Of a stretch of 64,000 nt of DNA, positions 5,308 through 61,173 are shown one piece after another. Positions within the stretch are counted from its first letter, which is position 1. Every line of letters starts with the position of its first letter. Position numbers and translations under genes: made by a program. The DNA comes from an uncultured bacterium (GTDB lineage: Bacteria > Babelota > Babeliae > Babelales > Babelaceae). The stretch spans positions 224,001-288,000 of the forward strand of contig OY970332.1 of NCBI GenBank assembly GCA_963717435.1, given 5' to 3'. A model generated the notes under the pieces. The model saw nothing but the letters and a program-made list of their open reading frames with translations. It was not told the DNA's origin and did no database searches.

Positions 5308-5356
5308 ATCCCGCTCGTCCCGAGTGTTTTTTCGTAGAAAAAATGTATCGAGGGAT
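5308..5356 (+). repeat. Dispersed palindromic element, copy 1 (minimal form, GTA triloop)
   Basis: atcccgctcgtcccgagtg-ttttttc-GTA-gaaaaaa-tgtatcgagggat. Confidence 0.92.
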
Positions 5357-5466
5357 GGTGAAGGCTTAAGTAGCCGTTTTGCTTGTATATACAATCTACC
5401 AATATTACAGACCAGGCTAATAATCAAACCTGTAATTATTTAAACCTGAAACACTCCTAGGCTAAT

Positions 5467-5498
5467 TATTGACAATTTGTAATCAAATTGGATAGTAT
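5467..5498 (+). promoter_or_regulatory. Putative sigma70 promoter of the ankyrin-like tandem genes
   Basis: TTGACA at 5469-5474 within TATTGACAATTTG; TAGTAT at 5493-5498. Confidence 0.45.
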
Positions 5499-5580
5499 TG
5501 AATTATATGGGTTATTTTACCAAATTTTGATTAATTTAGGTTAGTAGTATTAAGTATTTAATTTTTTATGTGAGGTTACG

Positions 5581-6765
5581 ATGAAATTCTTAAGATATCT
5601 TGGCATTAATATCGCTTTATTACTCACATCTTTTGGTTGCATTTTTGCAATGGAACAGGACATCAAACCTGCGCCCAAAATACCTGAAGGTGTCTTTCGA
5701 GAGTTAACTAAAGCCGGCATAACGATAAATGAGAACGCAAAAACAGAAAAAGAGATTTTTGCTATTGCAGATAAATTTATGAAAGCCGGTGGCGGTGCCG
5801 CAAAGTCTGTTTTAAATTTAGTTAAAGAGACTGGCTTAAAAAAAGGCTTTAAAGATTACACTTATGGCGATTTCAAAGCTGATATAATGGACGATATTAT
5901 TGATGTAAGGGCGAGATTAGAAGCTTGGAAAAAGGTTATAGAAGAACACCCTACTTATAATGACGAAAATTTTAAAGCAGTTTTCTCAAAATACCCAGAA
6001 ACAAAATTAATGTTGCTAAAGCAATTAGGCTATCCTAAAAATAAATTTTCTATAGCTGCTAAAGCCGAAGCATATAATTGGGCAAAACATCAGCTGAAAT
6101 ATGACAATGAGTTTAAAGAAGAGCTACAAGACTTGTTCGTCAGAACTTTCTTTGATACACAAAATATTGATCTTAAAGCACTTGAAGTGTTATTGAAATT
6201 TGGCGCAAATCCAGATGCTTATGAGATTGGCAATACGAAACTGGATTTTATAACATCTTGGAGGATTGTGAATCCTAGAGGCCACGAATATAGTGATGAT
6301 TCAAAACAATTAGAAATTTTAGAACTACTGTTAAAGTACGGAGCCAATCCGAATATTAAGTCTAATGGCCTTTCCCTTGGCAGGAATATTCACAGGAACA
6401 GCGGCATGTATCCTAATTATCCATTACACAGAGTTTTGCTTTGGAAGGAGGTATCTCTTAATAATGATATAAGAAACGAAGTCTTTCAGGACCGCTTAGA
6501 TGTTGTAAAGTTATTATTAAAATATGGAGCTAACCCTAATCTAAAAGATCCTAGTGGGGCAAAACCTATTGATTATGCAAAAAGTCTTTTAAAATATCTT
6601 CAAGGAACAGTTGGTTATTATTCTGGTCTTGGCAAAGAAGATGAAAAAACAAAAATTGTTAAGCAGATAATTAAATTGCTTGAAGAAGAGATGGCAAAGC
6701 CTGATAAAAAAAGAGCGCAAGAGAAAGAAGAAAATCCGCATATCGGCATGTATATGATGGAATAA
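5581..6765 (+). CDS. Secreted ankyrin-repeat-like protein, copy A
   Basis: Signal-peptide-like N-terminus ending FA|ME; three LLK(F/Y)GANP ankyrin-type motifs; RBS GAGG. Confidence 0.8.
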   Translation: MKFLRYLGINIALLLTSFGCIFAMEQDIKPAPKIPEGVFRELTKAGITINENAKTEKEIFAIADKFMKAGGGAAKSVLNLVKETGLKKGFKDYTYGDFKADIMDDIIDVRARLEAWKKVIEEHPTYNDENFKAVFSKYPETKLMLLKQLGYPKNKFSIAAKAEAYNWAKHQLKYDNEFKEELQDLFVRTFFDTQNIDLKALEVLLKFGANPDAYEIGNTKLDFITSWRIVNPRGHEYSDDSKQLEILELLLKYGANPNIKSNGLSLGRNIHRNSGMYPNYPLHRVLLWKEVSLNNDIRNEVFQDRLDVVKLLLKYGANPNLKDPSGAKPIDYAKSLLKYLQGTVGYYSGLGKEDEKTKIVKQIIKLLEEEMAKPDKKRAQEKEENPHIGMYMME

Positions 6766-6782
6766 AATTTTGAGAGGTTACG

Positions 6783-58168: not shown

Positions 58169-58336
58169 CCCAAAAAAATGCTAGCACACTTATTCAAACC
58201 TGAAAATATTAAAAAAACATGAACAAGTCGATAAAATTATTGCATATTGGATAATATAATTGCTAAAATTAGCTTATATATAAAATAATTTTAATAATAA
58301 TAAAATTCGATTCTGTTCCAAAATGAGAGGCTATTT

Positions 58337-59062
58337 ATGAACTTTTTCAAAAAACTTATGGTTTTAAGCCTGCTGATAAGCACTTGGTCGATAATGGGCC
58401 AACCCGCACAGCTACCAAGCGATCAACAACTTGCCACTGATATAAATCTCAAAAATATATTTTATGAAAACTTAGCAAGTCCTAATTGTTCAAATGAACC
58501 GGTAATCTACGATATCTGGGCAGCAAAACTGGCTTGGATTTTTGAGACATTTTTCTCAGGCCCGAATTTAGAAACTAAAAATCTGGTCGCCCAATTAATT
58601 ATAAGCTTGAAAGATCAAACAGAAAATCTTTGGGTGAAATATATGGCCATAGTTTACTATGTGGATTTGAATATACCCTTATTGCAAGAAAAAAGAGGAT
58701 TTAAAAGCACAGATGTCATCACATTATTAGACCCAAATAATGGTCTAAAAATAAAGGAGCTACTGATCCCTGTAGAAAAGCAAAATATAAATATTAGAGC
58801 AAAAGCCGAATCTGCTCTTTTGCTAGGAAAAATCAGCCACTTCTATGCTAAAACTAGGGACTATTCATTGACAATAAAATATTTAGATAGTGCTATCAAT
58901 CAAAGCTGTGATTTAGAAATAAAAAAAGATGCAAAAGATTTAGTAAAAACTACTGAATTAAAGGGACGGATTTTGACGACGAGAGATGTACGAAGTGGTG
59001 AAGGTATTGAACCTGAGTCCTTTGGCAAGAAGTCTAGAAAATTAGATGAAATGGAAGATTAA
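58337..59062 (+). CDS. Hypothetical secreted protein
   Basis: RBS GAGG, signal peptide, helical C-half. Confidence 0.7.
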   Translation: MNFFKKLMVLSLLISTWSIMGQPAQLPSDQQLATDINLKNIFYENLASPNCSNEPVIYDIWAAKLAWIFETFFSGPNLETKNLVAQLIISLKDQTENLWVKYMAIVYYVDLNIPLLQEKRGFKSTDVITLLDPNNGLKIKELLIPVEKQNINIRAKAESALLLGKISHFYAKTRDYSLTIKYLDSAINQSCDLEIKKDAKDLVKTTELKGRILTTRDVRSGEGIEPESFGKKSRKLDEMED

Positions 59063-59165
59063 AGGCTGATTAATTTTTTCTAAAATTACGCTTTATAATA
59101 AAAAATAGTATAATAATAACTGCAGATTAAATTCTGTGGTTATTTCTTTTTGGGGGCAATTTTTA

Positions 59166-61076
59166 ATGGTAAATCTAGAGCTTAATAATAATTTTGATGT
59201 AATCGTCGTTGGTGGTGGTCATGCCGGAATTGAAGCAGCTTATGCGGCTGCAAGGTTGGGCTGCAAAACTCTTCTTGTGACCTTAGACATTAATAAAATT
59301 GGTCTTATGCCATGTAATCCTGCAATCGGTGGTATTGGAAAAGGGCATATAGTCTATGAGATTGGTGCGCTTGGCGGCCTTATGCCTCAACTTTGCACGC
59401 AAACTTATCTGCAAGCCCGTATGCTAAACACTCGAAAAGGGCCCGCTGTTCAAGGTTTAAGATTACAAATAGATAAAATTGCTTATAGCAAACTTAGCCA
59501 AGAATATTTAAAGAAAACTGAAAATTTAACTCTGCTTTCTAGTATGGTAGAAGAGTTGATAGTAGAACCCAGCTGCGATAAAAACCCGCTCGTCCCGAGT
59601 GTTCTACGAAGCGCTAGCGAAGTAGAAAGTATCGAGGGGCGTGGCACGAAAATTACTGGAATTAAGACAAGAGATGGGCAAATTTATAATGCACCGACTG
59701 TAATTATTACTACAGGAACATTTTTAAATGGCCTAATTCATGTTGGTCAGACAAATAAAACTGCCGGAAGACAGGGCGAAGAAGCGGCTGTAAATCTTTC
59801 AACAAGTATAGCAAAACTTGGCCTAAAAATGGGAAGACTAAAAACTGGAACCCCTGCAAGATTATTGCGATCCAGTATAGATTTTAGCGTAATGGAAGCA
59901 CAGGGCTCAGACGAGCTTACACACCTGTTTGAGTTTTACCCGCATAAAGTTACAGGCAAAATGGACTGCTATATAACTTTTACCAACGAGAATACTCATC
60001 AAGTTATAAAAAATAATTTTGAATTATCGCCCATATTTACTGGGCATATTAAGGGTACTCCGCCTAGATATTGCCCTTCTCTTGAAGACAAAATTTCAAG
60101 ATTTGCTGACAAAAATTCCCATCATGTTTTTGTTGAACCTGAAAGTGCTTCTAACGACGAAATATACCCCAATGGGCTTTCTACATCTATGCCACTAGAG
60201 GTTCAAGAAAAATTTATTAGAACAATTAAGGGCTTTGAAAATGCTGTGATTGTCAGACCGGGATACGCAGTAGAATATGATTTTGTTGCACCAAATCAGC
60301 TTAAACACACACTTGAAGTCAAAACTGTTAGTGGTTTATTTCTAGCGGGTCAAATTAACGGGACAACAGGATACGAAGAGGCTGCTGGTCAAGGGATAAT
60401 TGCGGGTATTAACGCAGCATTAAAAGTGCAAAATAAGCCTGAGTTTATTTTTGATAGAAACATAGGCTATATTGGGATCATGATCGACGATCTTGTTCTG
60501 TTGGGCGTAGACGAGCCTTATAGAATGTTTACGTCACGCGCTGAAAGAAGATTAATTTTAAGACAAGATAACGTATACCACAGACTTGGAAAAATATCTT
60601 ACGAACTTGGGTTAATATCTGAGAGCTTATATTCTGATATTCAAAAAGAAAAAGATATGGTTGATGAAGCTGTAAAGCAGATTAAATCTAGCAAAAAAAA
60701 TGTAGAAATAATGCAATTGCTAACTAATGGCAAATTAGAAGAAGCAAAAAAGATTATGCTTGAATGCGCAACTGGCGAAATTACTGAACGTGCCCTTCAG
60801 AGCATACATGCGGAAGTGTTATATGAGCCCTATTTAAAGCGCGAAGAAAAAGAAGTTGAAAAGTCCCATTATTATCAAACATTAAAAATTCCTGAAAATT
60901 TTGACTATAAAAATATTCCCGGATTGTCGATTGAGCTACAACAAAAACTTAAGAAATTTAAGCCTGCCACAATAAGTCAGGCTGGTTTAATTCAGGGCAT
61001 GACCCCTGCTGCTATATCACTTTTAATTTTTAAAGTTAGAGAATATACTGACTTTAAAAATCACACAACTGCGTGA
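59166..61076 (+). CDS. mnmG: tRNA uridine-5-carboxymethylaminomethyl modification enzyme MnmG/GidA with in-frame repeat insertion
   Basis: [68 protein letters not shown]. Confidence 0.98.
59585..59639 (+). repeat. Dispersed palindromic element, copy 11, in-frame inside mnmG
   Basis: cccgctcgtcccgagtg-ttctac-gaa-gcgctagc-gaa-gtagaa-agtatcgagggg, encoding [18 protein letters not shown]. Confidence 0.95.
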
Positions 61077-61104
61077 TTTTTATTTAAGTAAAATCTTGAT
61101 AGAA

Positions 61105-61173
61105 CCCAATCCCGCTCGTCCCGAGTGCCCGACGCAGCTGAAAGCGTAGACGGGTGTATCGAGGGATGGTGGG
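61105..61173 (+). repeat. Dispersed palindromic element, copy 12
   Basis: cccaatcccgctcgtcccgagtg-cccgac-gca-gctgaaagc-gta-gacggg-tgtatcgagggatggtggg. Confidence 0.92.

Follow-up and report, generated by a model that had tools for sequence, protein, structure and literature searches.

Three-stem hairpin repeats in a Babelaceae genome flank the gene of a small GIY-YIG nuclease, their probable partner

The elements described here are GC-rich, multi-stem hairpin repeats scattered through a 64,000-nt stretch of DNA, referred to throughout as the window, from the genome of an uncultured Babelaceae bacterium (GTDB phylum Babelota, here Dependentiae; assembly GCA_963717435.1, contig OY970332.1). Elsewhere in the same genome, two copies in inverted orientation enclose a gene for a 94-residue GIY-YIG protein. 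We regard it as probable that these hairpins and a small GIY-YIG nuclease of the Ssn type are cognate partners, representing a larger, multi-stem form of the pairing between the nuclease SsnA and its hairpins, the NTS and the Ssn-related motifs (SRM). The window comprises bases 224001–288000 of the single 1,198,203-bp contig (34.6% GC), such that window coordinates are genome coordinates minus 224000. Copies were located with a covariance model, R1, which was built on 11 window copies and applied to the genome at E ≤ 0.01.

The nuclease gene was first seen in the comparison of congeners. In the genome designated G113, a convergent pair of copies encloses a 95-aa open reading frame (ORF), P0001, whose product is a GIY-YIG domain protein (Pfam E = 3e-19, residues 4–75); the only other domain above cut-off, T5orf172, overlaps the GIY-YIG match. 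The genome under study has one close intact homolog, a 94-aa protein that is 63% identical to P0001. Its gene (genome 1066108–1066392) lies 778 kb beyond the end of the window and sits exactly between R1 matches at 1066015–1066094 (+) and 1066398–1066478 (−), which are inverted with respect to each other. A preliminary description of the window, made from its sequence, had proposed that a mobilising enzyme is encoded elsewhere and had suggested a search for a GIY-YIG or HUH gene flanked by copies. An associated GIY-YIG gene is indeed found outside the window and is flanked as anticipated; a role for this nuclease in mobilising the repeats is putative.

The arrangement recurs among relatives. 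When 30 homolog loci from 30 genomes are compared, 17 are flanked on both sides, first by a + copy and then by a − copy, and the spacing between gene and arm is constant over these 17 genomes. Six loci have a copy on a single side only, in two cases at a contig end; three have another arrangement, and four have no R1 match. Three of the latter four carry 25–39-nt inverted arms of a divergent hairpin. In the R1-negative genome G067, the variant CCYGAGCG..GTCGARGG occurs 13 times, compared with 0 for a control pattern, and two of these occurrences flank the gene. The arms change along with the nuclease lineage, which fits recognition of the arms by the enzyme.

The nuclease looks active, judging from its intact catalytic-type residues: Tyr7, Tyr17, Gly19, Arg27, His31, and Glu64 are invariant in 21 nuclease sequences. 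Pseudogenes with internal stops also occur. An AlphaFold model (pLDDT 87) resembles the UPF0213 proteins 1zg2 and 1ywl most closely, followed by Slx1 and the N-terminal domain of UvrC. The top named relatives are alphaproteobacterial, with a protein of Sphingomonas parapaucimobilis at 53% identity.

Element and nuclease were scored in 151 genomes of the phylum, all from one order, with an element match accepted at E ≤ 0.001 and a nuclease homolog at a best E ≤ 1e-20:

Element present, nuclease present: 41 of 151 genomes
Element present, nuclease absent: 28 of 151 genomes
Element absent, nuclease present: 8 of 151 genomes
Element absent, nuclease absent: 74 of 151 genomes

The corresponding odds ratio of 13.5 is descriptive only, because the genomes are kin and a two-by-two table overstates their independence. 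The 69 of 151 genomes with the element include the one studied here and belong to 14 of the 18 families sampled, and the distribution is patchy within families and genera, with 6 of 19 genomes positive in the family of the genome studied here. A scan of contigs for a 16-mer gave, among the first 100 loci listed, 87 chance matches in GC-rich genomes and 13 loci confirmed by R1; all of these 13 have Babeliales/Dependentiae or “bacterium” titles, apart from one weak match (33 bits) on a Verrucomicrobia-labelled contig. Viral contigs contained no nuclease relative and no element pattern.

In terms of anatomy, single folds and the alignment reveal the same parts on one strand of the element: an outer stem, a CGCTCG tag or bulge, a 5-bp stem, a junction, and a variable stem with its apex. 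These three stems are contained in ~80 nt, with a range of 70–115 nt. The outer stem is made partly of subfamily-specific sequence, and the 5-bp stem occurs as GTCCC/GGGAT, GCCCT/AGGGT, GCCCC/GGGGT, or GTGGT/ACCAT. The CGCTCG tag is conserved and the junction, GAGTG / TGTATCGA, is invariant, such that both stay constant where the stems vary. The variable stem has 6–7 bp, and its apex is either a purine-rich internal loop with a mini-hairpin or a triloop. The architecture originally claimed, with its CTC bulge, GTCCC/GGGAT or GCCCT/AGGGT stem, GAGTG/TGTATCGA loop, and terminal mini-hairpin, is thus seen in both folds and alignment.

The stems covary strongly. Over 106 distinct genome copies, standard pairs account for 98.3% of pair cells, compared with 82.8% in column shuffles and 33–61% when the partners are slid. 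Two-sided changes are found in 249 cells (59.6 in shuffles), and compensatory changes in 11 of 15 pairs, with three pairs (G25–C112, A26–U111, and U28·G108) showing no variation. Because the alignment had been fitted to R1 and the copies are related to one another, these figures favor structure; the slid controls are still clear. Conserved G·T/G·U pairs also make the fold specific to one strand. Of 105 copies compared, 102 have a sense strand more stable than the complementary one under RNA parameters, and 104 under DNA parameters. A K-turn can be read into the invariant junction (5′-stem-GA-GUG / UGU-AUC-GA-stem, for instance at window 14635–14675), if its consensus is taken to be a bulge of 3 nt and then tandem GA on both strands. 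At gathering thresholds, Rfam matches RNase P alone in the whole window, and at E ≤ 1 it returns sub-threshold miRNA-hairpin noise for the four element loci searched, such that no Rfam family matches the element.

The window itself contains exactly 12 R1 matches, at the positions given in the preliminary description, and these, together with a fragment near 19503, stand far above chance. The two-part core GAGTG-N(10–30)-TGTATCGA has 9 exact matches in the window and none in 100 dinucleotide shuffles. The 5′ motif CGCTCGYCCYGAGTG, allowing up to 2 mismatches, is matched 13 times (shuffle mean 0.03), and the 3′ motif is matched 12 times (0.86 in shuffles). The density of 12 copies per 64 kb compares with 116 R1 copies per 1.198 Mb for the whole genome. 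The copies are GC-rich in an AT-rich setting, as claimed, with GC fractions of mostly 0.41–0.59 against 0.31–0.39 per 2 kb of window. They are as follows, in window coordinates:

5300–5371, + strand: short-apex copy with P3 TTTTTTCG and a GTA loop, intergenic (genome 229300–229371; R1 63.5 bits, fold)
8015–8095, − strand: full copy with a GCCCT/AGGGT stem and an extended outer stem, ACACCCG/CGGGTGT (R1 80.4 bits; fold −28.6 kcal/mol)
8216–8296, − strand: full copy with a GTCCC/GGGAT stem and outer stem TTGGCCG/CCGGCCAA (R1 83 bits, fold)
14613–14695, + strand, and 14713–14791, − strand: convergent doublet with an AT-rich spacer between the arms, the − arm having an ATCACC-type P3 (R1 matches; doublet alignment)
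~19503–19549, − strand: truncated copy, 5′ half only, with a GTGGT-type stem (5′ motif as CGCTCGTGGTGAGTG, 2 mismatches, at 19535–19549; alignment); no R1 match at E ≤ 0.01
34390–34470, − strand: full copy at the 3′ end of a TPR gene, 32840–34393 (R1 80.2 bits; fold −34.7 kcal/mol)
44315–44395, − strand: copy translated in frame within gpsA, 43859–44941, − strand (R1 75.6 bits)
46633–46746, − strand: long copy of 114 nt with an extra hairpin in the apex (R1 52.6 bits; fold; alignment)
48259–48339, + strand: full copy in the spacer (80 nt) that separates a HAD phosphatase gene from the gene for a queuosine precursor transporter (R1 82.7 bits)
50525–50604, + strand: copy translated in frame within an rlmB-like methyltransferase gene, 50209–51039 (R1 77.6 bits; host named by NCBIfam)
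59575–59655, + strand: copy translated in frame within mnmG, 59136–61076, as a 24-aa insert (R1 81 bits)
61101–61182, + strand: full copy with P3 CCCGAC in the mnmG–lgt spacer (R1 78.7 bits; fold −30.8 kcal/mol)

Both spacers and genes are occupied, as had been stated: three copies lie inside NCBIfam-named genes (gpsA, the rlmB-like gene, and mnmG). In the gpsA product, the NCBIfam GpsA models match as two stretches, 2–173 and 214–359, and the element lies in the gap between them.

The comparison of orthologous sites reveals that copies are gained at new positions, including in frame inside conserved genes. MnmG has matches in 28 of 30 genomes of the same family; one genome, with two matched pieces out of frame, was dropped, leaving 27 readable in one frame. 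The 24-aa insert in MnmG corresponds exactly to the element and is absent in all 27 of these orthologs. A second case is provided by two congeners, G141, which has 62 R1 matches, and G137, which has 0: at a syntenic site, a 164-nt block with a copy is present in G141, and the flanks are contiguous in G137. Finally, a ~700-nt package cluster of G113 is missing at the syntenic site in three congeners, G139, G104, and G005, with homologous packages found elsewhere in G139, G104, and G107. Placement is thus not identical at all orthologous loci, and this insertion polymorphism supports the earlier proposal of a dispersed, structured family, similar to REPs and Rickettsia palindromic elements (RPE), that is gained by insertion. 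A target-site duplication is unreadable, since the nearest genomes are just ~70–80% identical in DNA; the 4-nt repeat TCAT seen at one insertion in G141 is not long enough to qualify as one.

With a crude, ORF-based gene call (1130 ORFs), the 116 genome copies can be divided into 76 that are intergenic, 3 that touch an ORF end, and 37 that lie inside ORFs. The intergenic copies are found between convergent genes (27), co-directional genes (24 + 13), and divergent genes (12). Inside ORFs, 24 copies are on the coding strand and 13 on the opposite strand; one of the 37 is an artefact, produced by an extended ORF that runs across the left arm of the nuclease unit, which gives 36–37 of 116. All six frames are used by the ORF-internal copies. 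The mean number of open frames, out of 6, is 3.95 for a copy, compared with 2.67 in composition-matched shuffles and 2.33 in random genome windows. Palindromic repeats that enter conserved genes in frame are characteristic of the RPEs (Ogata et al.), and the elements behave likewise here in mnmG, gpsA, and the rlmB-like gene.

The copies also occur in modular forms. Most are singlets, and at least 10 convergent doublets are found in the genome, one of them at window 14613–14791; when 10 doublets are aligned, 7 have a common, conserved AT-rich spacer and 3 have abutting arms. Recurrent inverted doublets, a hallmark of REP/REPIN, are thus present in this family. Some copies carry an additional hairpin in the apex, and composites, in which one copy is inverted inside the apex of another, are found in at least 8 places in the genome. 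A GCCCT-type hairpin is the inverted guest in at least 6 copies, for example at genome 44190–44340, 810330–810480, 815310–815460, and 1119470–1119620. The composite junction is not placeable, because the six bases CCCGGC with which the inner copy ends belong equally to the outer stem. Nested and truncated copies both occur.

A small GIY-YIG nuclease that pairs with hairpin repeats has been characterized in Neisseria meningitidis (Chenal et al., 2025, Nat Commun 16:2388; PMC11893778). The ssnA gene encodes a 94-aa single-domain GIY-YIG protein (CDD cd10448) that binds and cuts only one strand of single-stranded DNA (ssDNA) beside the hairpin repeat NTS and does not act on double-stranded DNA or RNA. 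Homologs in many phyla are flanked by SRM, the characterized SsnA enzymes recognize their own flanking repeats, and the NTS-ssnA-NTS layout was likened to an insertion sequence (IS). SsnA modulates natural transformation in N. meningitidis, for which the authors propose domestication. The claim of novelty in the preliminary description does not survive this comparison as regards the principle of nuclease–hairpin pairing, which is already in print; the hairpin type found here, and its behavior in Dependentiae, appear to be new. The main text contains no mention of the Dependentiae phylum, and the one Babeliales genome in Supplementary Data 4 is entered with 0 SRM and no homolog. Our literature search found no paper on DNA repeats in Dependentiae, and the Dependentiae genome papers searched by term mention protein repeats only.

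The two systems have several features in common (PMC11893778). Both have a 94-aa single-domain GIY-YIG protein whose gene is bracketed by inverted, oriented hairpin repeats; in both, the repeats are present by the hundred per genome and shift with the nuclease lineage, and both are enriched in host-associated bacteria. SsnA was measured to be specific for one strand of ssDNA, and the strand asymmetry of the Dependentiae hairpin is in keeping with this. In contrast, the published hairpins are 20–50 nt long, whereas the Dependentiae hairpin has 70–115 nt, a two- to threefold greater length, with three stems and an invariant GAG...TCGA; it carries CGCTCG in place of the CGTC tag; and about a third (~31%) of its copies lie in ORFs, compared with 2% of NTS copies in N. 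meningitidis.

Among the alphaproteobacterial relatives, the Sphingomonas homolog is flanked by the same GAGCG..GTCGA mini-hairpin (locus L326, a plasmid record, 511–564 and 871–918), and the Methylobacterium homolog by a three-stem version (locus L327, 520–584 and 888–959). These hairpins share a CCY-GAG...TCGA-RGG core, and R1 aligns with them weakly, at 7–12 bits. The published SRM pattern has no match in the three alphaproteobacterial loci. Supplementary Data 4 (PMC11893778) lists Sphingomonas parapaucimobilis as “cd10448 homolog YES, CDD score > 100”, an entry at the species level that may concern another gene, and gives the same species no SRM enrichment (0.76-fold). A homolog without SRM enrichment is consistent with a second class of hairpins that escapes the published pattern.

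Two further classes of repeat are comparable. Like REP/REPIN-RAYT systems, the Dependentiae system has a single gene flanked by inverted hairpins, with gene-less doublets and singlets that are mostly intergenic, and folded ssDNA is probably what is recognized; it differs in having a GIY-YIG rather than an HUH Y1 enzyme, no GTAG tag, and many intragenic copies. With RPEs and CGTC REPs, it shares GC-rich palindromes in the AT-rich genome of an intracellular bacterium that occur in frame in genes and are translated, and a classical transposase is associated with neither. Di Nocera et al. (2013; PMC3733652) describe the CGTC REPs, including RPE-4 and RPE-6, as lacking a dedicated transposase. The Dependentiae elements belong to another phylum and have a different, larger fold.

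If the Ssn-type assignment is correct, the nuclease would bind the folded sense strand of the element in ssDNA, as exposed during replication, during repair, or in incoming DNA, and would cut slightly 5′ of the hairpin, by a few bases, at or close to the CGCTCG tag; both steps are modeled on the SsnA enzymes assayed in Neisseria and Wolbachia. We infer that the enzyme may also mobilise the repeats. The package of hairpin, gene, and hairpin presumably is, or once was, an IS-like unit, and the doublets and single hairpins may be derivatives of it without the gene; the cuts would lead to the copying of package and derivatives alike, a proposal without precedent. Copies inside genes would be tolerated because most reading frames of a copy are open.

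Several points weigh against this explanation. GIY-YIG nucleases are not known to join DNA strands, which leaves the step from a cut to a new copy unexplained. The copies exhibit no replication-strand bias, with 63 of 116 on the leading strand as defined by GC skew, a weak point for a replication-linked ssDNA route. The second row of the genome table counts against it, as does the kinship behind the odds ratio; G141, with its 62 copies, is among the genomes without a close nuclease homolog, and a profile search of five element-positive genomes that lack a close homolog found weak paralogs only, one with a weak one-sided arm. The solved relatives of the nuclease (1zg2 and 1ywl, ~40% identity) are UPF0213 proteins only, which bears on its assignment to Ssn (cd10448) as opposed to the neighboring UPF0213. 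A CGTC tag is found in only about two-thirds of the copies. The published SRM pattern, HGTCWYN(0-2)YYVSBRHN(0-5)WNVSBRGN(0-2)RNCYNB, has 1 match in the genome (1.8 in block shuffles) that overlaps none of the 116 copies, and it has no match in the 30 nuclease loci.

Three other explanations were ranked below the Ssn-type pairing. The first, which we consider unlikely, is that the GIY-YIG gene, either selfish and of the homing type or carried as cargo, settled between pre-existing hairpins and that the hairpins are spread by an unknown enzyme, by recombination, or by template switching. Some IS elements target REPs, a parallel for such a squatter. In its favor are the genomes that carry the element and lack a close nuclease homolog (28 of 69, one of them with 62 copies), the preponderance of singlets over doublets, the nuclease pseudogenes, and the fact that GIY-YIG enzymes cut DNA and are not known to integrate it. 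A squatter would not be expected to show arms that change together with the nuclease lineage or a gene-to-arm spacing that is constant in 17 genomes, and the search for other candidate enzymes gave none, with no matches for Y1, TnpB, or reverse transcriptase and with a single IS whose ends are unrelated. The published SsnA enzymes, moreover, recognize their own flanking repeats (PMC11893778).

A second possibility, rather improbable in our view and compatible with Ssn-type pairing, is that of a domesticated host system, in which nuclease and hairpins control ssDNA (incoming DNA, recombination) and the copies are kept by selection. The role of SsnA in meningococcal transformation and the domestication proposed by its authors (PMC11893778) favor it, together with the single intact close gene copy in the present genome and a core that is conserved over 14 of the 18 sampled families. 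What it does not lead one to expect are 36–37 of 116 copies within ORFs, in all six frames and both orientations, a patchy distribution even within genera, insertions in essential genes, and nested and truncated copies, all of which look like parasitic spread.

That the elements act at the RNA level, for example as a protein-binding, K-turn-like motif that stabilizes or terminates transcripts, is very doubtful. The conserved G·U pairs, the strand-specific fold, the resemblance of the invariant loop to the K-turn consensus, and the enrichment between convergent genes (27 of 76 intergenic copies) would all suit an RNA. The orientation relative to genes is nearly random, however, with 24 same-strand against 13 opposite-strand copies in ORFs and mixed orientations in co-directional spacers, there is no Rfam family, the genome has no L7Ae match, and the characterized SsnA does not bind RNA (PMC11893778). 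The K-turn reading was set aside on the grounds of orientation, L7Ae, and the lack of RNA binding by SsnA. A reading as terminators was rejected as well, because no T-run follows the hairpins that were read and orientations are mixed.

Classical REP/REPINs moved by a RAYT (HUH Y1), or miniature inverted-repeat derivatives of the resident IS481-family element, can be dismissed almost entirely, given that the high copy number, inverted doublets, and extragenic bias that recall REP/REPIN, and the presence of a 3-copy IS encoding a DDE transposase, are outweighed by the lack of any Y1_Tnp match in the genome, by Y1 counts that run against the elements in five relatives (10 Y1 and 0 elements in G137, 0 Y1 with elements present in G123), and by IS inverted ends (TGTYCWGGTTCA...) that are unrelated to the hairpin ends. 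The HUH/RAYT gene that the preliminary description had suggested as a possible neighbor of the copies was not found, with 0 matches each in this genome for Y1_Tnp (PF01797), TnpB (PF07282), RVT_1, and L7Ae, and no correlation between Y1 and elements in the five relatives.

The IS is the only one found in the genome; its copies lie outside the window (genome 349438–350590, 618239–619372, and 638274–639426), two of them are 100% identical, and it encodes a 337–342-aa IS481-family DDE transposase (168 bits, short of the 224 set as the curated cut-off). As a mobiliser of the elements, it was rejected because its ends, read from the 3 aligned copies as TGTYCWGGTTCA.ATACATATGAGACT, are unrelated to the element ends. 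The right end of the IS, TGTATTGAACCA, agrees at 11 of 12 bases with the 3′ terminus of the GTGGT-type hairpin, a rare form, and this agreement may be chance.

Additional features of the window were observed. Tandem 394-aa genes (5581–6765 and 6783–7967) with 97% DNA identity and no NCBIfam match are bracketed by element copies, with 5300–5371 just upstream and 8015–8095 downstream. A second tandem pair of paralogs (17240–18277 and 18426–19436), which has stretches ~83–86% identical and no NCBIfam match, is directly followed by the truncated copy at ~19503–19549. An RtcB-family RNA ligase gene is located at 25958–27385 (−); its top NCBIfam match is to an intein-containing RtcB model, in two stretches and well below the model cut-off.

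A broader interpretation is possible, though we hold it only tentatively: the package could be an active, autonomous mobile element of a class unrecognized among prokaryotic ISs, with a 94-aa ssDNA nuclease as its sole element-encoded function and gene-less derivatives that colonize intergenic DNA and, in frame, essential genes throughout the phylum, and the CCY-GAG...TCGA-RGG core could represent a second SRM class in Alphaproteobacteria that the published search pattern overlooks.

Small palindromic repeats that enter protein-coding genes, among them the Rickettsia elements and the REPs with a CGTC tag, have lacked a known partner enzyme for two decades. The 2025 work on Ssn supplied a candidate and left open whether and how the repeats spread. 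The genome described here offers a compact natural test case, with one intact nuclease gene, a hairpin with a defined invariant core, dozens of empty versus filled orthologous sites, and congeners with and without the system. Each new nuclease–hairpin pair is also a potential new site-specific ssDNA cutter for biotechnology. Because at least one entire class of Ssn-type hairpins escapes the published SRM pattern, the distribution of the system is probably wider than reported so far.

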